A DNA stretch of 64,000 bases from Parasphingorhabdus sp. (GCA_047615875.1 JBLHGU010000002.1:649-64648); one strand, 5' to 3'. Positions 33,266 through 49,643 are shown, counted from the stretch's first letter. Notes: generated from the letters alone by a model not told the origin. Numbers and translations are program-made.

Positions 33266-34882
33266 ATGAATAGTTTGTTTCTACTGTTAATCGGTAGCGT
33301 CGTTCTACTGCTTGGACACCTGTACTGGCACCGGCTATTAGTTGCGTTCCGATTTCGCCCTCTGGTTGGGGCGGATTACCGTGGGCTCGAAAACTTCGCC
33401 AGTAGTTTGCCTGCTGGGGCTATTATTTACGCCATCGGGGCGGTAATAAGTCTTGCCTGGGGTTGGGCACCATTATTTGTTTGGCTGCTGATAGCCGGGA
33501 CATTTGTTGGTGGCTTCGCCCATGGCGTAGTCGACTGGCTAACGGCTAACCATGCAGGCTATGGGGGATTGGAACTATTTCGTCATTGTGCAGGCCGAGC
33601 CATCAGTTATTGCATGCGTAGCCTGCTAGTCCTTCTAACGCTATTTTTATCCGCCATCGTTTTACCAGCCAGTGTTGTCCTTCTGAAGAATCATCCTGAT
33701 GCGATTATAGCGATAATTTTACATGGATTGATTCTGCTTGGAGCTCACGCCCTACGCCAAAAACTAACCGAAAACCTGCACTCGGTTCTAATTCTAGCGG
33801 GATTATTGTTAATCCTCCCGGCACTTAGCTTGTTAGCCAATCTGGACCTGGACCTGGATTATCTCGCCACTAACAGTAAATCCGTAATAGTCGGTTTCTC
33901 AGCCATCATCCTGATTTTCATTGTATTAGCCAGCAACCGAGACCAACGAGGCTATAGCAACTTGTCAGCCAGAATCGTCATGGGAGCTATTTTTACGCTT
34001 TTCCTGGTGGTTCTACTTGCACTATTAATTCAACGACCAGCACTTGAATTCCTCAGTTACTATGAAAATCCCCAGCTTGGCAACGCCATGCCGTCGATTA
34101 CTGCCGTAGTTAGTCTGGTCGCGCTGGGATTAATACCCAAGTTCGCGATCACCCAGGAAAATGCTGGCGAGCCAGCAGTGGCTGGTGGAGTACTAAAATC
34201 GGCTAGTAGCGTCGAATCTCTTTGGGTTTTGCTACTGCTGGTTATTCTTTTGTCATTCGTCTCACTGAACCCTGAAAGGGTAAATGAACTGCCGGACTGG
34301 AGCACTACGGTCCTGCCAGATCAGTTTCTGAGCTTAATTACCAATGCGCTTCAGCAAACTACTGCAGTGCTAGGATTACCTGAACAGGCCATGGGAAGTT
34401 TCGTGACCTATCTGTTTATTATTCTTAGCTGGCACTTCCTAGTCAATAATCATCGAGGATTTATGAGCGCAGCTAGCATACCGAATTCGAATTTGTCATT
34501 ACTCAATAGCTCCCGGGGCATCAGCATTCTATACTGCCTGATTGTTTTAGCACTGACAGTGACAATGTTGCTATGGCCTGTGTCATTGCAAATCTGGATA
34601 GTATTTGGCGTCGCAGCATTCTTGCTGCTGAATCTGGTTATTGTCAGCGGCGCGTTAGCTGCGCTGCGATTGCATCAGTCAAATGGCCTAATATCAATTC
34701 TGGCACTATGCCTCTCCGGTTTTTTCTGGTGGCTAATTGCGCAACAAATGTGGGTCGCTGCCAGCCACGAATCCTGGCCCACACTGTTGTTTATAACGCT
34801 TCTGGCTGGGATCGGTATATGGGCCCATGGTAATGCTGTTCGACAAGTTGTAGAGTTGAATCGACGCCGACTGGCACATTAA
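33266..34882 (+). CDS. polytopic membrane protein, divergent CstA-like transporter
   Basis: Many TM helices; GAVISLAWGWAPLFVWLLIAGTFVGGFAH resembles the CstA GWLPxxLWIxxGxIFxGAVHD segment. Confidence 0.6.
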   Translation: MNSLFLLLIGSVVLLLGHLYWHRLLVAFRFRPLVGADYRGLENFASSLPAGAIIYAIGAVISLAWGWAPLFVWLLIAGTFVGGFAHGVVDWLTANHAGYGGLELFRHCAGRAISYCMRSLLVLLTLFLSAIVLPASVVLLKNHPDAIIAIILHGLILLGAHALRQKLTENLHSVLILAGLLLILPALSLLANLDLDLDYLATNSKSVIVGFSAIILIFIVLASNRDQRGYSNLSARIVMGAIFTLFLVVLLALLIQRPALEFLSYYENPQLGNAMPSITAVVSLVALGLIPKFAITQENAGEPAVAGGVLKSASSVESLWVLLLLVILLSFVSLNPERVNELPDWSTTVLPDQFLSLITNALQQTTAVLGLPEQAMGSFVTYLFIILSWHFLVNNHRGFMSAASIPNSNLSLLNSSRGISILYCLIVLALTVTMLLWPVSLQIWIVFGVAAFLLLNLVIVSGALAALRLHQSNGLISILALCLSGFFWWLIAQQMWVAASHESWPTLLFITLLAGIGIWAHGNAVRQVVELNRRRLAH

Positions 34883-38252: not shown

Positions 38253-38615
38253 TTAAATCACGCCACTTTCTAACGGGGCAAACATTCGCTCCATCAATTT
38301 TTTGAAATCACGTTCTCCGATATGTTCAAACTCAGCAAATTTCAAGCCAATTCCATGGGGTTGCCGAAAGCGTCGTCGCCAGGTTACAACCGCAGTGGCA
38401 GAAACTGCCTCTTCATCAACCGGATAAAAATCCAAACGCAATATGCTGCCAATCGGATAGTTTTCATCAGTGACTAGAAACATACCACCAAAACTGCAGT
38501 TTTCCGCAATCCCGCGAAGATAGTTACTGGACACACTGGAATTGCCGTCGATTCCGTAAACCACTTCAATATCAGAGGTCACTCGAGGGTATTTTCGAAA
38601 ATCCGAACTCTTCAT
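38253..38615 (-). CDS. single-domain PilZ protein
   Basis: RKYPR (RxxxR) and NCSFGG (D/NxSxxG); start taken at MKSSDF since the longer ORF overlaps msrA. Confidence 0.8.
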   Translation of the reverse strand: MKSSDFRKYPRVTSDIEVVYGIDGNSSVSSNYLRGIAENCSFGGMFLVTDENYPIGSILRLDFYPVDEEAVSATAVVTWRRRFRQPHGIGLKFAEFEHIGERDFKKLMERMFAPLESGVI

Positions 38616-38847
38616 GGTAGTAAATCCGTTATTTTTATCATAGGTTGAGTTTACCACCATAAGATCTGGCATTTTCTCTATCCATGAAGTCAAAAGGTTT
38701 GGGTAGTCATTCTCGTTTTTCCTGTGCCAATCATAAACTATCGTCAACGTCTTTCGATACTTTAAATAACCCAGACCACAAATTCGCAGTTGCACATAAT
38801 GGCTTGCAGCGGTAACTTCTCTATCCAAAGCATTACCAGGAAAACTC

Positions 38848-39483
38848 ATGTTCTTTGCTCGCGAAAAATCCACCATAGTGAAAGCCAACGATGCTCTCCC
38901 CGGCCGAAAAGAGCCGTTAAAACTAGTCAATAGACACTTCGTTCACCAGCATCCCATAGTGCCGCCGTTTCCCGAGGGACTTGTGCAAACAGTATTTGCT
39001 ATGGGCTGTTTCTGGGGGGCCGAAAGACGCTTTTGGGTATTGGATGGTGTCTACTCTAGCGCCGTGGGCTATTGTGCAGGATATACAGAGAACCCCACTT
39101 ATCAGGAAGTTTGTTCTGGGCAGACAGGCCATACAGAAGCTGTTCTGGTTGTTTACGATGCCGATATAATTTCCTATGACGAGTTGCTCAAGGTGTTCTG
39201 GGAGTCTCATAACCCAACTCAAGGTATGCGCCAGGGTAATGATGTTGGTAGTCAATACCGGTCTGGACTATATACAACCGATAAAATTCAGCAGCAGCAA
39301 GCCCTGGATAGCAAAAATGTCTTTCAACAGGCCTTGGGGCAGTCCGGGCAATCAGCTATCAGCACCGAGATTCGGCTGTTGCAAGAGTTCTACTATGCTG
39401 AGGATTCCCACCAGCAATATCTGGCGAAAAACCCCCAGGGATATTGTGGCCTGGAGGGCACCGGGATTTGTTACCCTGCTTGA
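38848..39483 (+). CDS. msrA: peptide methionine sulfoxide reductase A
   Basis: [30 protein letters not shown]. Confidence 0.96.
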
Positions 39484-39556: not shown

Positions 39557-41611
39557 ATGACTCTCGACCAGAATATGCAGCAGGTGAACCAAAACCCTAA
39601 CTCCAGTGCACTTCGAGTGGTCATGTTTTCTGGGGGACGTGGTTCCAGTGCGTTAACGCGCCAGCTGGCCCAGGATCCGGACGTTCACCTGCAAATTTTA
39701 ATCAATGGTTACGATGACGGTCTATCTACCGGGGAAGTGCGTTACTACCTGGGCAATTGCCTGGGCCCGTCAGATTTTCGTAAAAATGCCTCGCGTTTGG
39801 CGGAGGCTCTGGGGAGCTGTCCTGCCGAGCTAATAAGTATTCTGGATTATAGATTTCCCGACCCCGCCAGTAATGAACTGGTCGGTGCTGTGCTACAAAC
39901 CCTGTGCAATCTGGAAGCACAACATGACGATAATTTCTTCAAACAGGTACAACAAAACTTTCATAACCTTGAACCCGCACACCGGCTGGCAATAGCTGAA
40001 CGTTTAAAGCCATTTGTGGACAGAGGGCAGGATAATTTCAACTTTAATGACTGTAGTCTAGGAAATCTCGTTTTCGCTGGTGGCTTTTTACGCTGCAATC
40101 AGGATTTCAATACAACAGTCGCAGACTATTGCGACATGTTGGGATTACCTACAGGCTTAATTCTCAATGTCACAAACGGAGAAAACGGGTTTTTAGTAGC
40201 ATTGGAGAAAAGTGGACAATTTCTTTCCAGTGAAGCTGAAATAGTTAACAGTGACAATCCAAGTCAAATTGAGGATATTTTTCTGATAAATGAACCAGCT
40301 ATTCATAACCCTGAAAAGGAAACATTATTCCAGGCTGCAACCTTAGAAAAATATCTAAATGAACATGACTGTCCGGTCAGTCTAAGTAGTGAAGCCGGAG
40401 ACGCCATCAGCCATGCTGATTTGATCATTTATGCGCCAGGAACCCAATATTCGAGTTTGCTGCCCTCATATATGACTCCAGAATTGGGGCTCTGCGTGGC
40501 CTCCAATTTGACTGCACGGAAGATGCTTATCACGAACATCCATGAGGATGCCGAGACACAAGATGCCAGCGCCGTGGACATTATCGAGCAGGCGCTATTT
40601 TATTTGCGTGAAAAGAATAAACATCAATTCCCTGCGCCACTCCTCATCACCCACTATCTTGTAAATACCCCTGGCAAAGTATCTGACGAAAGTCTTTATA
40701 TGCAGCCTGGCCAGATAGAATCTATCGAAGACCCGCGCTTAATAAGAATTGGCAATTATGAAGAAGGCATAACCGGCAAGCACCAACCGGAAAAACTATT
40801 AGCTCCGTTCATCACCGCCATTTTGAAATCTCGCAGGCGCTTCCAGGTGGCAGTTCTACTAATGGATACGGTGTCCCTGAATAAAACCACGCAAACTCTC
40901 CTCGAAATGGTGCGTGCGCAAACCTTCAATCTGGATTCAGATATAACCATTTACTACTGCGGCGAACACAATAAACATGTGGCAGAAAATCCTGACCTTA
41001 AACTGAAAGTGCGTTGTGTACAAACCGAGAATATATTGCCCAATGATGCATTGGTAAAACAAGCTCTCGATGACGAAATGGACTTCCTTTGTCTCTGTGA
41101 GTCTTCCGGCATGTATCACGGGCACGATATTGTGGCGCTATTATCTAACTTAAACCAGGACCCAGTTGATGGAGTTTGGGGCAGCCGCAGATTATCTGTT
41201 CACGACATTCAATCCTCCTATAAGTTTCGCTATAACCGAAAACGACTTAAAGGCATGGTCAGTTATTTTGGCAGCCACCTTTTAAGCCTCACTTATCTGC
41301 TACTTTACGGTCGGTATATTTCCGATACCCTTTCCGGCTTACGACTATTGCGAGCAGATTTTTTTCATGACATGCCGGTCAGCGCAGATGACGCTTGCTT
41401 CAATCAACATCTTCTAAGCAGACTATTAAAGGGCAAAGGCAAGGTTTTTGAAGTTCCGGTGGAATTCCTTCCGATGTCACCGGAGAAGGTAAAACGCACA
41501 ACAGTTAACATCGGGCTTCGCAGTTTGATGGTAATTATTAAGCAGCGATTCAATAGTCAGGAAGCCAACGGCCGAATTAACAAACGAGCTGTGGAAGATT
41601 CTGCTCGATAA
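39557..41611 (+). CDS. YvcK/CofD-family domain fused to a degenerate GT2 domain
   Basis: SGGRG, YDDGLSTG, GPSDFR, SLGNL, ADLIIYAPGTQYSSL; C-terminal VWGSRR, ISDTLSG, EVPVEF. Confidence 0.8.
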   Translation: MTLDQNMQQVNQNPNSSALRVVMFSGGRGSSALTRQLAQDPDVHLQILINGYDDGLSTGEVRYYLGNCLGPSDFRKNASRLAEALGSCPAELISILDYRFPDPASNELVGAVLQTLCNLEAQHDDNFFKQVQQNFHNLEPAHRLAIAERLKPFVDRGQDNFNFNDCSLGNLVFAGGFLRCNQDFNTTVADYCDMLGLPTGLILNVTNGENGFLVALEKSGQFLSSEAEIVNSDNPSQIEDIFLINEPAIHNPEKETLFQAATLEKYLNEHDCPVSLSSEAGDAISHADLIIYAPGTQYSSLLPSYMTPELGLCVASNLTARKMLITNIHEDAETQDASAVDIIEQALFYLREKNKHQFPAPLLITHYLVNTPGKVSDESLYMQPGQIESIEDPRLIRIGNYEEGITGKHQPEKLLAPFITAILKSRRRFQVAVLLMDTVSLNKTTQTLLEMVRAQTFNLDSDITIYYCGEHNKHVAENPDLKLKVRCVQTENILPNDALVKQALDDEMDFLCLCESSGMYHGHDIVALLSNLNQDPVDGVWGSRRLSVHDIQSSYKFRYNRKRLKGMVSYFGSHLLSLTYLLLYGRYISDTLSGLRLLRADFFHDMPVSADDACFNQHLLSRLLKGKGKVFEVPVEFLPMSPEKVKRTTVNIGLRSLMVIIKQRFNSQEANGRINKRAVEDSAR

Positions 41612-42264
41612 TGTCGTGGCAAATTAAAAACATCGTATTCGACATGGATGGAGTTATCGCCGACACCACTGCCTGTCATACACGCGCTTACGCTGAGCTC
41701 TGGAAACACCTAAACTTCGATGGTCCTCCCTATAGCCAGATAGCAGGTCGCTCTACTAAAGAAGTCTTATTAGAGTGGACCCGGCAACTTGACCCGAGTG
41801 ATCAACAGTTATCTGAATGGGTCAGACAAAAACAGTCCGCCGCACGAAACTATCTCAATGTTGACCCCATAGCCTATGACGACAGTGCTTCGGTCATTGC
41901 CTGGCTGGCTAAGCACTTCCGTATGGCGGTGGCGACCAGTGCATCACGTGACTCCGCCCATCTGATTCTTCAGCGCTGTGGCGTTAGCACCTTTTTTGAT
42001 ATGGTGGTTACCGCCGAAGATGCCAAGCATTGTAAACCGAATCCAGAGCTATACTTAATCGCTATGCAGCGGTGCGGATTCCAACCTTGCGACACATTGA
42101 TAATTGAAGACAGTAATTCCGGCATTGATGCAGGTCTTGCCAGTGGTGCCTGGGTGGTTTCCGTTCGAAGTGGTCTGACACGCAATAATCCGCGCTTCCG
42201 GTTTGCCTACAACAATCTCGATGAACTGAAAGTGCAGCTTAGCACTTCTGAATGGCTGGACTGA
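41611..42264 (+). CDS. HAD-IA phosphatase / beta-phosphoglucomutase-like
   Basis: FDMDGVIADT, VATS, KPNPELY, IEDS..GI. Confidence 0.85.
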   Translation: MSWQIKNIVFDMDGVIADTTACHTRAYAELWKHLNFDGPPYSQIAGRSTKEVLLEWTRQLDPSDQQLSEWVRQKQSAARNYLNVDPIAYDDSASVIAWLAKHFRMAVATSASRDSAHLILQRCGVSTFFDMVVTAEDAKHCKPNPELYLIAMQRCGFQPCDTLIIEDSNSGIDAGLASGAWVVSVRSGLTRNNPRFRFAYNNLDELKVQLSTSEWLD

Positions 42265-42268
42265 AAAT

Positions 42269-43009
42269 ATGCAGTGCATGATCATTCCTGCTGCTGGGCG
42301 AGGCACTCGACTTAATTCTGATTTACCTAAATTGCTGTTTAAAATTCAGGGGGTTTCCCTAATTGAATATGTGCTAAGACGACATAGCGAATTTATCCAG
42401 CATTTTGTGGTGGTTATACACCCGGACATGCAAGAAGCTGTTAGCCGTGAGCTGGATAAATGTGGTTATGACTACAGTCTGGCATATCAGACTCAGGCAA
42501 CTGGAATGCTGGACGCAATTCTTTTGGCGAGTGACAATGTTCGGACACTGGATCCCACCACGATCTGGATTAGTTGGTGTGATCAGGTGGCAATCAGTCA
42601 GAAAACTGCGTCCACCCTTAATCAATTCACTTCTGAGCTTGGCGAGTTCGGCATGGCATTGCCGACAATGACAAAGTCCGAACCTTACATTCACTTGTCG
42701 CGTAATACACAGGGCCAAATAACCGACATTCTGCAACGCAGGGAAGGTGACGCTATGCCTCGAGTAGGAGAAAATGATTGTGGTCTTTTTGCTATGACAA
42801 TCGCAACCTATTTGCAGCAATTGCCTGAATTTACGCGCAGCATGGTCATCGGCACGGCTACCGCCGAGCGAAATTTTTTACCCTTTATACCCTGGTTGAC
42901 AAAACGAGCTGCGGTTAATACTTTTGCGGTCGAAAATATCAATGAATCGATTGGTGTTAACACGATCGAAGAAGCAGAAACATTGGCAAAACACTTTCAA
43001 GACATATGA
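42269..43009 (+). CDS. sugar-phosphate nucleotidyltransferase (GlmU N-domain-like, stand-alone)
   Basis: IPAAGRGTRLNSDLPK, Q..ATG, GVNT..E; no left-handed beta-helix domain. Confidence 0.85.
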   Translation: MQCMIIPAAGRGTRLNSDLPKLLFKIQGVSLIEYVLRRHSEFIQHFVVVIHPDMQEAVSRELDKCGYDYSLAYQTQATGMLDAILLASDNVRTLDPTTIWISWCDQVAISQKTASTLNQFTSELGEFGMALPTMTKSEPYIHLSRNTQGQITDILQRREGDAMPRVGENDCGLFAMTIATYLQQLPEFTRSMVIGTATAERNFLPFIPWLTKRAAVNTFAVENINESIGVNTIEEAETLAKHFQDI

Positions 43010-43737
43010 ATAATAAAACTTTATCTATCGTAATACCGGCTTTCAATGAAGAAAGGTTCATCGGCACGCTACTGGAAACTATTCGTCAAGTCGATCTTGA
43101 TTCCCTCTCAGTCAACGCGGAAATCATCGTGGTAAACGATCGCTCCAGTGATCGAACATCAGAGATTGTTAAACAGTTTGATGAAGTAAGATTGATTGAA
43201 CATGCGGTTAATCAGGGCAAAGGCCGAGCCGTTCGAACAGGACTTGAAGAAGTCACCGGTGACTTCATTATTATTCAGGATGCGGACCTGGAGTATGACC
43301 CCCACGACTACTTAGCCATGTTGACGCCTATTCTTAACGACAGTGCGGACGTGGTATATGGCAGCCGGTATTTGAAATTTCCAAACGCTGGCCTATTGAA
43401 AAATCTGCTTACTGGCAAACATCCAACGCAATCCATGGCAGCCTACATAGGTGGTCAGAGCCTTAGTTTTGTCAGCTGGGTTTTTGCTGGACGCTATATC
43501 ACCGACACGGTAACTGCCTACAAATTATTCCGAGCGCCAATTCTGACCGGCATGAATTTAAAAACTACCGGCTTTGAAACAGATCATGAAATTACCTGTA
43601 AGTTACTACGTGCAGGCCACCGATTAAAAGAAGTTCCGATAAAGTATTTTCCCAGAAGTCGAGAAGAAGGTAAGAAAATCGGTATAAAGGACTGGTTTAA
43701 GGCGATTCAAACGTTTTTTCGTTTCCGTAATGGCTAG
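43006..43737 (+). CDS. GT2 polyprenol-phosphate glycosyltransferase (DPM1-like)
   Basis: IPAFNEE, NDRSSDRT, NQGKG, QDADLEYDP, VVYGSR, EGKKI. Confidence 0.9.
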   Translation: MNNKTLSIVIPAFNEERFIGTLLETIRQVDLDSLSVNAEIIVVNDRSSDRTSEIVKQFDEVRLIEHAVNQGKGRAVRTGLEEVTGDFIIIQDADLEYDPHDYLAMLTPILNDSADVVYGSRYLKFPNAGLLKNLLTGKHPTQSMAAYIGGQSLSFVSWVFAGRYITDTVTAYKLFRAPILTGMNLKTTGFETDHEITCKLLRAGHRLKEVPIKYFPRSREEGKKIGIKDWFKAIQTFFRFRNG

Positions 43738-43769
43738 TCCACAGAATTGAAAAAAGCTAAGGCAAATCA

Positions 43770-45179
43770 TTGATGCAAGATCTGGACCGTAAATTTGCGA
43801 CATCGCCCCTGACAAACTGGGCATTAGTTATTATTGCCTTAGCAATAGCCCTATATTGGTCGGTAAATCCATCCGACATTCCTCTCCAGTCACCGGACTC
43901 AACCAGTTATATTCGCTTCGATGACTATCGTGGCGCTGGATATCCAGCCTTACTGGCATTATTGCATTGGCTAACTGGCAGTCTCGATTACATTGTCGAA
44001 TTGCAGCTTCTGCTTGTTGTATTGAGCACCGCATTTCTGGCAATACGCTTCACGGCGTTTTGCGGTTCAGCAATTGCCGGGTTGATTCTTTTGCTCACGA
44101 TTACGATGAATCCGTTTTTCATGCGCTATTGTTTTAGCATATTGTCTGAAGCATTGTTCTTCTCATCCCTGATGCTTTTTTTGGCTATTGCCGTGGAGAG
44201 AAATCGCCCAGCTAGCCGAACATTTATTCTTCTGGGGATGTGCCTGGCATGGCTTGTTCTAATAAAGCCGGTGGCCTGGGCTTTTATTTCAATTCCGGTA
44301 TTGCTAGCAGTACATTCCTTTCTTCGCTATCGGCAGTTTGTCCGGCCAATACTGACTTTCAGCATGGGAGTTATTCTGATTATTGCGCTCGGAGCTATGT
44401 ATCGTCATTCAGTTCACGGTGTTTATTCACCGGGCTCATTTCTTGGCAACCAGTTGGCCGGCAAACTTATTTTCGCTGAGTTCGATGCAAAGGATATACG
44501 CTATCCCGAAGCTGGTCAGAAATGGCTGAATTATATGGAAATTCCAAAACAGGTACGTACTGAAGCGTTTCAAGACCTGGATGAAAAGTTTTTATTTTCC
44601 ATAAATATCTATGACTATATTCGATTCGTAAAATCGCCACACATTGTGGCCGCAGCGGGTCCGGGTGATCAAAGCGTTATACAGGGTGAGCTAGCCAGGA
44701 GCATCCTGTTCCAGGACCCGGGTGCCTTTGTCGAAGATGTTGGACTACAGCTGTATGGATTATGGACTATGGCTACACTGCAGCCTGCTGGGCTAGTCGA
44801 ACGATATATGGAAAAGGTTTCGATCTATCAACCCAGGATGCCCGTAGGCGTTACCTTGTACGCGATTAATGGTCGAGTCGGCTGGATGGTAATAGCATTA
44901 AAAGGCGGCTTCTATTTACTTTGTGGTTTAAGCCTGGCTTGCATACTAGCGGGTCTTTATCATTGGTTAGTCCGACGAAAAGCGATGAATCAAACGGCTA
45001 GTATGCTTTTTTATCTGTCAGCGGCAATCCACAGCTACTATCTGCTTGTGGCCACATTTCAGGCTGCATTGCCACGCTACCTTTTCGCTGGTTGGCCCAT
45101 ATTAGTTATGCTGGCCCTGATTCTAACTTTATGGGTTACACGATTCGGCTGTTTGCGATCGATGGACAAAATCAACTAA
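43770..45179 (+). CDS. polytopic GT-C-fold glycosyltransferase (putative)
   Basis: First loop PDSTSY..RGAGYP, ILSEALF, LIKP, C-terminal PRY; many TM helices. Confidence 0.7.
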   Translation: MMQDLDRKFATSPLTNWALVIIALAIALYWSVNPSDIPLQSPDSTSYIRFDDYRGAGYPALLALLHWLTGSLDYIVELQLLLVVLSTAFLAIRFTAFCGSAIAGLILLLTITMNPFFMRYCFSILSEALFFSSLMLFLAIAVERNRPASRTFILLGMCLAWLVLIKPVAWAFISIPVLLAVHSFLRYRQFVRPILTFSMGVILIIALGAMYRHSVHGVYSPGSFLGNQLAGKLIFAEFDAKDIRYPEAGQKWLNYMEIPKQVRTEAFQDLDEKFLFSINIYDYIRFVKSPHIVAAAGPGDQSVIQGELARSILFQDPGAFVEDVGLQLYGLWTMATLQPAGLVERYMEKVSIYQPRMPVGVTLYAINGRVGWMVIALKGGFYLLCGLSLACILAGLYHWLVRRKAMNQTASMLFYLSAAIHSYYLLVATFQAALPRYLFAGWPILVMLALILTLWVTRFGCLRSMDKIN

Positions 45180-45390: not shown

Positions 45391-45723
45391 CTAGTCAGAT
45401 TTTGGTGGATTCATAGGCATAGGAAAGGGTGAAACATTTCCCGAACCACCTTCAACCGCAATAATCTTATTTTGGCCTTCCTTCTCCACTTCATCAATTC
45501 GCACTACAGAATGCATGGGAATATAGGTACGCTTAACACCGTTAAATTCGGCTTTGAGTCGCTCATCTGACGGATCGACCACAAGTTTGGTGCGTTCACC
45601 GAATATAATGTCACCAATTTCGATAAAGGCATACATGCCACTTTGACTTACTTCACGAGCATAAAGCTCATAGACATTGCCATTATTGTGGAAAACCACT
45701 TTGAAAATACTATTTTTACCCAT
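45391..45723 (-). CDS. DUF1820-family protein
   Basis: IFKVVFHN..VYELYA, VDPSDERLKAEF, IPMHSVVRIDEV. Confidence 0.85.
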   Translation of the reverse strand: MGKNSIFKVVFHNNGNVYELYAREVSQSGMYAFIEIGDIIFGERTKLVVDPSDERLKAEFNGVKRTYIPMHSVVRIDEVEKEGQNKIIAVEGGSGNVSPFPMPMNPPKSD

Positions 45724-48143: not shown

Positions 48144-49643
48144 ATGCTAAGACTATTTCGCGATGTTGTCAGAATTTTAAGTGTTACAGAAAACCTTCTG
48201 TACCTGGCTGGCAAAAGTCTACAACGCCGTGCTATGCGCAATGGACTACTGATTTCTCTGGCATACAGTTCGACAATTCTACGTACAAACTATATTAATG
48301 CGCAGGAGCTATCGCCGGAACAATTGACCGCTCTCATAATTGGTGGATTTGCCTCTTACCCCGCCGGCACCTTATTAGTCAGAATCGCTAACTTCCTGAC
48401 TCGGGATAATTTACAGGCTGCGGCGGCCGGTTATCTGCACCTGACCAGCCATTATAAACAATCCCAGGTACTTACCCACTTGCATTTTCTTTGGCATGAA
48501 GTGTTTGCCAGCGAACACATTTCGGTTAGTTCGGCTCATGAAACACAACACCCCACTGAACTCGAAATCACATCCTTTCGAAATCAGCAAGATGAAGTAC
48601 TTCTACACCTGTTTCAGGAACAACCCACAACCAACAGGAAAGAACAACTTATCTATCAAAATTTTGTTCAGTCTGCGGCCGATGCTTTACGCTCACCTCT
48701 GCCAATGGGGGTTCAAAGCGCCCGCATTGGCTTTCATCTGGGTCCGATTGAAGACTGGTATGAAAAAGGTTTCTTTTCCTATGAAGATTTTCCTGCTAAA
48801 GCCATTTTTCGTGACCCATTAATAAAACGCTGCCAAAAACTTACAACGTCTCCAATCAAATATCAATTGCATCAATGGCTATCGCCTGAAGCAACACCTT
48901 CTTTCTGGCATGCTTTTACTGTACGCAAATTTGGCACCCGCGTTGGTCGCTCACTGGGTCAACTTAATCAACTTGCTGAGCGGCAGGGTTTTCCCGACTT
49001 TTTCGATGCCCAACACTTTATCTGGCCATCCACTCAACTGGATGACACTGTCCGACAACGCTTTAACCAACAACCGAATTCCCTGGCAGACAAACTTTTT
49101 TCACGCCGACAAGAATTGTTCCGAAATCTTTTTAGTGAAGATCAAGTTGCTGCCAGGCGGCACATCATGCGCATGTTTGTGCGCGACTATGCATTTATTA
49201 TGAAACTCAGACTGAGCTTTGATGTGTTATATGCCGGGGATAAACTGGCTGCAAAACCTGCTGAAGAACTGCGGCAAATCGAAAGGCTGTTTTCCATTCA
49301 ACCCATTAGCCAGAAATTTCTTGATCGCTGTAAAAATTCAGCATTGAGCCATATTGAAAATCTGGACGATTTTCTTGCTCAGCATCCTGTGGATAACGCA
49401 GATGAAGTAGAAATTGAGAATCTTCACCAGGCTTACCACGTGGATTACCACGGATTACGAAGTCGGTTCATCAAGGCCGATAATGAGAATTTAATGGAGG
49501 AGTTACTAAAATGCACATCAGATGAAAAAGCAGATCTGGCGGTACTCAGGGAACTTTTACATCGGGTTCGCATCTACCATGTTCTGATCAAGTTGCAAAT
49601 TCATGCTTACTGGTCAATCGTTTTGAATATCGGGCGATTGTAA
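48144..49643 (+). CDS. hypothetical protein
   Basis: 499-aa ORF filling the gap between two genes; no motif recognised. Confidence 0.7.
   Translation: MLRLFRDVVRILSVTENLLYLAGKSLQRRAMRNGLLISLAYSSTILRTNYINAQELSPEQLTALIIGGFASYPAGTLLVRIANFLTRDNLQAAAAGYLHLTSHYKQSQVLTHLHFLWHEVFASEHISVSSAHETQHPTELEITSFRNQQDEVLLHLFQEQPTTNRKEQLIYQNFVQSAADALRSPLPMGVQSARIGFHLGPIEDWYEKGFFSYEDFPAKAIFRDPLIKRCQKLTTSPIKYQLHQWLSPEATPSFWHAFTVRKFGTRVGRSLGQLNQLAERQGFPDFFDAQHFIWPSTQLDDTVRQRFNQQPNSLADKLFSRRQELFRNLFSEDQVAARRHIMRMFVRDYAFIMKLRLSFDVLYAGDKLAAKPAEELRQIERLFSIQPISQKFLDRCKNSALSHIENLDDFLAQHPVDNADEVEIENLHQAYHVDYHGLRSRFIKADNENLMEELLKCTSDEKADLAVLRELLHRVRIYHVLIKLQIHAYWSIVLNIGRL

Follow-up and report, generated by a model that had tools for sequence, protein, structure and literature searches.

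Known relays and YvcK/CofD-type proteins

The textbook lipid-carrier relay runs from a family 2 glycosyltransferase (GT2) through a flippase to a membrane glycosyltransferase of the GT-C fold, and is represented by GtrA-GtrB-GtrC, ArnC-ArnT, the mycobacterial Ppm1 with GT87/PimE, and PpgS-Rv3779. Other relays include modification steps, such as those of ArnD, DprE1/2 and NaxD. A five-gene operon (P1 to P5) at positions 39557-45179 of a 64,000 nt stretch of DNA from Parasphingorhabdus sp. (GCA_047615875.1 JBLHGU010000002.1:649-64648), the whole of which is referred to here as the window, resembles these systems in encoding an intact DPM1/GtrB-type GT2 (P4) and a GT-C protein (P5), and related loci carry GT87, PMT_2-like and DUF2298 proteins as well as DedA or Wzx-like transporters. 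It differs from them in an extra, universally conserved protein, P1, that joins a YvcK-type domain to a pseudo-GT2 domain, in a dedicated nucleotidyltransferase (P3), in the lack of a transmembrane tail on P4 and in the absence of a GtrA or ArnE/F-type flippase from the operon. On balance the operon appears to be a polyprenyl-phosphate sugar relay for glycosylation outside the cytoplasm, with P1 as an additional, membrane-proximal enzyme.

The closest published concept is that of the three-component pentofuranose systems, which consist of a polyprenyl phosphoribose synthase, a MATE flippase and a GT136 GT-C enzyme (PMC11127046). As described in the available text of that paper, they share the logic of a lipid-linked monosaccharide donor that is made in the cytoplasm and used outside by a GT-C enzyme, and in some cases an auxiliary enzyme works on the sugar while it is lipid-linked. 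However, their donor synthase uses phosphoribosyl pyrophosphate and is not a GT2, and the same text describes neither a YvcK-like protein nor a nucleotidyltransferase among their parts, so that this identity was rejected for the operon on account of its different donor synthase and components. Full-text literature searches, from which supplementary files were excluded, found no work linking CofD/YvcK-like proteins with GT2/GT-C lipid-carrier systems, and no characterised pathway with this gene set, as the preliminary description of the locus had anticipated.

Two groups of proteins bear on the N-terminal half of P1. YvcK/GlmR proteins (UPF0052) bind UDP-sugars and show uridyltransferase activity, according to excerpts of two studies (PMC10128056; PMC5482804), and the first of these excerpts gives a DDG motif as necessary for the uridyltransferase activity of Listeria GlmR (PMC10128056). 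P1 shares with them the UPF0052 fold, for which they are the best structural match (2hzb, 2o2z, 2ppv), and the DDG motif, but it scores below the YvcK cut-off, is fused to a GT2-like domain and lacks a yvcJ-yvcK-whiA context. CofC/CofD (FbiD/FbiA) of F420 biosynthesis offer a second likeness, in that a CofD-superfamily fold is encoded beside a nucleotidyltransferase gene in this operon; a phospho-transfer by P1 from a nucleoside diphosphate (NDP)-activated donor is chemically conceivable by analogy. Yet P1 is more distant from CofD than from YvcK, P3 is GlmU-like, the partners are glycosyltransferases and no CofE was found in the genome.

A five-gene operon with a conserved core

The list of open reading frames (ORFs) on the + strand contains exactly five co-directional genes across 39557-45179:

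P1, 39557..41611, +, 684 aa, YvcK/UPF0052-like domain fused to a degenerate GT2-like domain
P1 N-terminal domain (~residues 18-400), 39608..40756, +, YvcK/CofD fold with invariant motifs GGRGS, YDDG..STGE and PGTQ.SS
P1 C-terminal domain (~residues 427-665), 40835..41551, +, pseudo-GT2 recognised from BLASTP to P4 and from fold matches
P2, 41611..42264, +, 217 aa, HAD-IA hydrolase resembling beta-phosphoglucomutase, accessory to the module
P3, 42269..43009, +, 246 aa, sugar-phosphate nucleotidyltransferase resembling the GlmU N-terminal domain
P4, 43006..43737, +, 243 aa, DPM1/AglJ/GtrB-type GT2 without a transmembrane tail
P5, 43770..45179, +, 469 aa, GT-C fold membrane glycosyltransferase of an unnamed family

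Direct reading of the junctions agrees with those given in the preliminary description: P1 and P2 overlap in TAATG (cgaTAATGtcg), P2 and P3 are separated by a 4-bp gap (TGAaaatATG), P3 and P4 overlap in ATGA (atATGAata), and TAG, 32 nt and TTGATG lie at the junction of P4 and P5. The start of P1 is uncertain, as the database gene call for the same sequence is 662 aa, and P5 probably starts at the ATG at 43773 rather than the TTG at 43770, because its second codon is ATG and the Atlas record begins there.

Gene neighbourhoods were surveyed by BLASTP of the window proteins against all ORFs of 80 loci, namely the best 80 of 188 genome stretches that encode a P1 relative (contigs from one genome per species); 55 of these loci have at least 4 kb on both sides and are counted separately:

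P3 present: 76/80 loci; 55/55 with flanks of at least 4 kb
P4 present: 70/80 loci; 52/55 with such flanks
P3 and P4 both present: 69/80 loci; 52/55 with such flanks
Colinear P1>P3>P4: 63/80 loci; 48/55 with such flanks
P2 present: 32/80 loci (absent from 48/80); 22/55 with such flanks
P5-like gene: 4/80 loci, all in Gammaproteobacteria; 4/55 with such flanks

The five-gene operon is real, and more than a chance arrangement, because the gene order recurs at 63/80 loci of other genomes. P1, P3 and P4 form the conserved core, P2 is optional and the GT-C partner varies between GT87, PMT_2-like, DUF2298 and P5-like proteins. In a member of another genus of the same family (G001) all five genes recur in unchanged order, again flanked by msrA and by DUF1820-dacB; identity to the window is 39-73% in the operon genes and 47-75% in the genes on either side. 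From this sharing of the same five genes at the same site it follows that the operon is old and syntenic in this small lineage. The co-occurrence of the genes in other genomes, on which the preliminary description had staked its proposal, is therefore found both in this synteny and in the 69 loci where P3 and P4 accompany P1. Within the order of the window, P1 is present in 2/41 genomes (that of the window counted), and a search of five genomes of the sister genus did not find the operon.

P1 joins a YvcK/CofD-type domain to a remodelled GT2 domain

P1 is a member of a widespread, unstudied enzyme family. Its N-terminal part matches CofD in Pfam (E 1.1e-20, residues 21-379), and in NCBIfam its best match is the CofD-like protein of the GAK system (TIGR04357) at 92.6 bits, under the cut-off of 340, with YvcK (TIGR01826) reaching 64.6 bits, under the cut-off of 196. 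When an AlphaFold2 model of P1 (pLDDT 83.4) is searched with Foldseek, the best match is the YvcK structure 2hzb_A (E 7.6e-13, template-modelling score TMt 0.73), and CofD/FbiA structures are weaker at E ~1e-5 and TMt ~0.55 (CofD 3c3e_A, E 7.6e-6, TMt 0.55). As modelled, the N-terminal domain resembles YvcK more closely than CofD. Across 54 sequences drawn from several phyla, the first aspartate of the DDG motif (D53) is invariant and the second (D54) is at least 90% conserved, and the residue of P1 that aligns with GlmR N198 is an invariant serine, the numbering of which is uncertain. The mean column identity of the family across phyla is 55%, with many invariant charged or polar residues in both domains.

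The C-terminal domain has no Glycos_transf_2 match in the Pfam scan. Its fold is matched in Foldseek by ArnC (9bhe_A, E 7.9e-7) and also by dolichyl-phosphate mannose synthase (DPMS) and GtrB (E ~1e-6), and residues 509-664 are paralogous to P4, with 25% identity over 156 residues in BLASTP (E 2e-18). At the DxD position P1 has E515-S516-S517 (in E-S-S-G-M-Y), and so the metal/nucleotide site is missing, and the equivalents of Q93 and R202 of the DPMS known as PfDPMS are M519 and M640. R544, which lies in a GSR motif and is the equivalent of PfDPMS R117, and D590-T-L-S-G (D590-x-x-S-G) are invariant in 54/54 P1 sequences. The substituted positions E515, S517, M519 and Y520 are themselves invariant in the 54 sequences, and because of this the domain is read from its residues as a GT2 that has been remodelled, not one in decay. 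Judging from these substitutions, metal-mediated binding of an NDP-sugar is hardly possible, but the polyprenyl phosphate head group is plausibly still bound. Of the YvcK/CofD-GT2 fusion proposed in the preliminary description, both domains are therefore present, but the GT2 half is degenerate and the N-terminal half lies closer to YvcK than to CofD.

A prediction of the complex of full-length P1 with P4, run with separate alignments and no controls, scored 0.00 and gave no answer. The same genome holds a second, weak match to the CofD/YvcK family at G000:C147:7100-8041 (E 2.7e-7, 25% identity to P1 residues 24-369), which is probably an ordinary stand-alone member of that family.

The enzymes encoded with P1

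P4 is read from its residues as a GT2 of the DPM1/AglJ type with a complete active site, in keeping with its earlier description as DPM1-like. It matches Glycos_transf_2 in Pfam (E 3e-31) and AglJ in NCBIfam (E 5e-29), remaining under the equivalog cut-offs of AglJ (101.6 vs 325), PpgS (56.5 vs 370) and ArnC (46.1 vs 529), and it matches PfDPMS 5mlz with E 4.8e-17 as a single protein and E 6.2e-24 as a family profile. The donor, metal and dolichyl phosphate ligands of PfDPMS, in the roles assigned to them in the available portion of the structural study (PMC5526996), are kept in P4 as E15 (PfDPMS E12), D45 (D39), D92-A-D94 (D89-A-D91), R121 (R117), R217 (R202) and K223 (K208), and these ligand residues (DAD, GSR, R..GKK) are invariant in 49 sequences.

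P3 matches NTP_transf_3 in Pfam (E 6.9e-13) and, over residues 4-244, the GlmU model TIGR01173 (E 3.2e-18, under the cut-off), as well as GlmU chains in the PDB (E 3.5e-8); no match to CofC was found in the Pfam scan. P2 matches HAD_2 in Pfam (E 6e-27) and belongs to the generic HAD-IA group (TIGR01509, 58.7 vs 29.4). It stays under both beta-phosphoglucomutase cut-offs, with 110.9 vs 153.35 bits for TIGR02009 and 87.8 vs 189.4 for TIGR01990, and its top PDB matches are putative or real beta-phosphoglucomutases (E 3e-18).

P5 has no match in Pfam or NCBIfam at E<=0.01 and none among PDB sequences, and it falls outside the named Pfam GT-C families PMT, PMT_2 and GT87. Its AlphaFold2 model (pLDDT 95.3, predicted template-modelling score 0.93) was compared by VIA-align with 48,161 chains, of which the top 20 are all GT-C proteins, with the next unrelated row at Z 7.7. 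The highest scores are those of Pmt1/2 (Z 23.0; 6p2r_B, 333 residues aligned, root-mean-square deviation 4.1), Pmt4 (22.6), ALG12 (18.5) and ArnT (18.1). A Foldseek search of the PDB gave nothing at E<=0.001, with GT-C entries at the head of the list (E ~0.006-0.06). As modelled, P5 clearly has the GT-C fold that the preliminary description had assigned to it. In 70 sequences the loop after the first helix holds D43, at least 90% conserved, and the invariant Y47, R54 and Y58, and thus carries a conserved acidic residue in its putatively extracytoplasmic first loop, as expected of GT-C enzymes. The P5 family comprises 491 representatives, and its Atlas neighbours carry PMT or PMT_2 only in part. 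The P5 profile matches a PMT_2-like gene at L001:12400-13719 in hhalign (96%, E 2.9e-9), and scores a probability <1% with L013:13387-15522, L030:14520-16568 and the GT87 gene L003:8347-9738. P5 showed no similarity to the GT87 portion of the fusion protein P0055 in BLASTP.

Distribution, gene neighbourhoods and fusions

The P1 family comprises at least 2005 proteins with E<=1e-3 (7999 scored candidates). Among the 120 relatives listed, identity is 45-54% over at least 94% of the query, the window's own record aside, and the members carry only automatic names in the database listings, such as 'CofD family' or 'YvcK family'. To judge by their record titles, the 80 loci belong mostly to Acidobacteriota (Vicinamibacterales, Blastocatellia) and Gemmatimonadota, with further loci in Gammaproteobacteria (Arenicellaceae, Methylococcales) and in single deltaproteobacterial, betaproteobacterial, Nitrospirales, Calditrichaceae and Eisenbacteria metagenome-assembled genomes (MAGs). 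A search for shorter, stand-alone YvcK-like halves gave 322 matches; those with a source name carry the label 'partial', many of the rest come from short contigs, and there is no sign of split genes. Partial P1-like proteins (P0305, P0324 and P0387, 34-39% identity) occur in the cultured Streptosporangiales Microbispora, Nonomuraea and Planobispora, which may offer hosts of a related module that are amenable to experiment.

The neighbours of P1 were given family labels from one Pfam-scanned representative each:

GT87: 24 loci, usually directly upstream of P1; 44 bits, over the cut-off
PMT_2-like clusters: 34 loci; one representative over the cut-off, three under it
DUF2298: 11 loci; over the cut-off
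DedA/VTT, a candidate for carrier recycling: 14 loci
Wzx-like: 9 loci
LtaS/sulfatase-type: 12 loci

P1 is also found fused to membrane proteins. P0055 and P0083 are fusions of GT87 and P1, and in P0271-P0273 (~1300 aa) P1 is followed by a C-terminal polytopic membrane domain of ~600 aa that belongs to no named family. When this domain of P0271 was searched in the Atlas, the matches were confined to Acidobacteriota clusters without a name and one cluster with DUF2298 in 12% of its members; a weak DUF6798 match and the DUF2298-like Atlas neighbour are leads to the nature of the domain. In many Vicinamibacterales loci, a protein of the P0271-P0273 type is encoded downstream of P4 in convergent orientation. 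P3 and P4 are in turn fused in a single ORF of 474 aa in an Acidobacteriota MAG (L004:2835-4256, +), which suggests that P3 feeds P4 directly.

The Arenicellaceae-type loci (L001, L002, L018 and L044) are a richer version of the window operon. Their P5-like gene lies divergently upstream of P1, and they also hold a second PMT_2-like GT-C protein, a 15-helix protein without a Pfam match, another protein of 8-9 helices and an extra GT2.

A proposed relay and its alternatives

As a polyprenyl-phosphate sugar relay the operon would work as follows. P3 would activate a sugar phosphate with a nucleoside triphosphate (NTP), the sugar phosphate being optionally supplied or trimmed by P2, and P4, as a peripheral GT2 whose conserved ligands point to this activity, would transfer the sugar to polyprenyl (undecaprenyl) phosphate. 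The lipid-linked sugar would then be flipped by a transporter encoded outside the operon, and P5, whose fold comes from its model, would transfer the sugar to a periplasmic or surface acceptor. P1 would be the obligatory fourth core component at the membrane, and is placed there because of its lipid-GT-like domain, its conserved phosphate-binding arginine and its fusions to GT-C proteins. As the nucleotide-sugar and metal ligands are lost and the lipid-phosphate arginine and the interface helices are kept, the likely ligand of the pseudo-GT2 domain is polyprenyl-phosphate or the polyprenyl-P-sugar that P4 makes, and the strongly conserved YvcK/CofD-type domain could carry out a nucleotide-dependent modification step on the lipid-linked intermediate. 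P1 would then be analogous in position to ArnD, DprE1/2 and NaxD.

Several points weigh against this reading. The role given to P1 is drawn wholly from residue conservation and gene fusions, and its residues were placed on PfDPMS by the ungapped BLASTP alignment of P1 with P4, at 25% identity, in which the equivalent of PfDPMS S135 is not kept. Neither P1 nor P4 has transmembrane segments, their membrane association being deduced from amphipathic helices. A flippase gene is absent from the operon, and a search of the 95%-complete genome for GtrA (PF04138), whose controls were positive in 8/14, found none; for the operon itself the preliminary description had already noted this absence. No acceptor-pathway genes for lipopolysaccharide, exopolysaccharide or pili are among the operon flanks. 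A labelled GT-C-type neighbour lies within 6 kb at 52/80 loci, which is a raw count without a background rate, and the GT-C labels of three neighbour clusters are sub-threshold PMT_2 matches.

The preliminary description had P2, P3 and P1 jointly building an unusual nucleotide sugar or sugar-phosphate conjugate in the cytosol, following a CofC/CofD-like logic, with P4 loading it and P5 transferring it. The CofD/YvcK fold of P1, the placement of P3 in the same NTP_transf_3 family group as CofC, the tight coupling of P1, P2 and P3, and the UDP-sugar binding and uridyltransferase activity reported for YvcK/GlmR in the excerpts cited above (PMC10128056; PMC5482804) are all in agreement with such a pathway. 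It is nevertheless weakened because P2 is dispensable, being absent from 48/80 loci, because a P3-P4 fusion exists and because P1 has membrane-type features, namely a lipid-GT-like domain with the lipid-phosphate arginine and fusions to membrane GT-C proteins; in addition P3 is GlmU-like over its full length without a CofC match and P1 is structurally more like YvcK (TMt 0.73) than CofD (TMt 0.55), all of which leaves a joint soluble product unlikely. About equally unlikely is that P1 is no enzyme but a nucleotide-sugar-sensing regulator or scaffold, comparable to the UDP-GlcNAc-binding regulator GlmR of B. subtilis as presented in an excerpt of PMC7525490, with the pseudo-GT2 domain pairing with P4 or anchoring it at the GT-C protein. 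This would suit a GT2-like domain without catalytic metal and nucleotide ligands, the paralogy of P1 and P4 and the fusions of P1 to membrane proteins, but both domains of P1 show enzyme-like conservation (55% mean column identity), the replaced DxD region is invariant, which suggests a new ligand site over decay, and the DDG motif that GlmR catalysis requires, according to the excerpt of PMC10128056, is retained.

P1 might also load the lipid itself, through a CofD-type transfer of a sugar-1-phosphate or phospho-group from an NDP-donor to polyprenyl-phosphate with release of a nucleoside monophosphate (NMP), leaving P4 to add a separate sugar. CofD/FbiA enzymes attack the beta-phosphate of an NDP-X donor and release NMP, and their structures 3c3e and 6uw1 are among the fold matches of P1. 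This chemistry, the retained lipid-phosphate arginine and the fusion of GT-C proteins to P1 and not to P4 speak for such a role, but the GT-C partners (PMT-like, GT87, ArnT-like) resemble users of polyprenyl-monophosphate sugars and P4 is already a complete Pren-P-sugar synthase, and self-loading by P1 is therefore quite improbable. Membership of the cluster in F420 biosynthesis, in another cofactor pathway or in the GAK system is effectively refuted, as the preliminary description had already held for F420 and GAK. In its favour are only the Pfam match of P1 to CofD and TIGR04357 as its best NCBIfam match. The latter reaches 92.6 bits where 340 are required, P1 has GT2 and GT-C enzymes for partners, P3 has no CofC match, and a search of the 95.2%-complete genome for CofE (PF01996), with positive controls in 3 archaea, found none.

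Beyond the lipid-carrier relay as such, a bolder and distinctly tentative proposal is that P1 represents a new enzyme class, in which a YvcK/CofD-type catalytic domain uses the pseudo-GT2 as a polyprenyl-phosphate-binding module and performs a nucleotide-dependent phospho- or glycosyl-phospho-transfer on the lipid-linked intermediate. The module would then make an envelope glycan that is common in Acidobacteriota and Gemmatimonadota but so far undescribed. If the proposal is true, its product would be a phosphodiester-decorated polyprenyl-P-sugar or a polyprenyl-PP-sugar, the latter being that of a soluble two-domain phosphoglycosyl transferase, and P1 would be the first case outside Firmicutes in which the catalytic chemistry of the YvcK branch is clear.

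Genomic surroundings

The operon lies among housekeeping genes (hemA, prfA, prmC, msrA, dacB), together with genes for a PilZ protein, an alpha/beta hydrolase and citrate synthase. Upstream is msrA (PMSR, E 1.5e-59). The supposed pseudogene downstream proves to be a gene for a DUF1820 protein (45391-45723, -) that is intact, with E 5.9e-41 and profile positions 2-97 of 97 covered; it is followed by the gene for penicillin-binding protein 4 (PBP4, dacB). The DUF1820 gene overlaps the 5' end of the long dacB ORF (TTG 45677), and because of this overlap the PBP4 gene probably starts further downstream than the listed ORF. The PilZ-domain ORF (38253-38930, -) and the msrA ORF (38848-39483, +) overlap by 83 nt as listed; because the PMSR domain begins only at residue 48 of the msrA ORF, either the PilZ or the msrA gene probably starts later than listed or msrA has an N-terminal extension. 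Two further ORFs near the operon, 33266-34882 (+, 538 aa) and 48144-49643 (+, 499 aa), have no Pfam match at E<=0.001. Three DNA sequencing runs, each an ice metagenome, were listed as containing this DNA, two of them as its possible source, and no RNA run was among those listed. The GC composition shows no break at the operon, and a scan for promoters and terminators was at the level of shuffled sequence, with 11 promoters vs 11.7 expected and 7 terminators vs 7.0.

Significance

P1, P3 and P4 together make up a very common core, and the 80 loci surveyed span dominant soil phyla and marine or ice Gammaproteobacteria. Its five-gene form, as found in the window and in the related genus, is the most compact version and a convenient unit for heterologous reconstitution. 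Once the reaction of P1 is known it would add a new step to the textbook relay from GT2 through flippase to GT-C enzyme, would help to settle the chemistry of YvcK-type domains and would point to an envelope glycan in phyla that are hard to culture.

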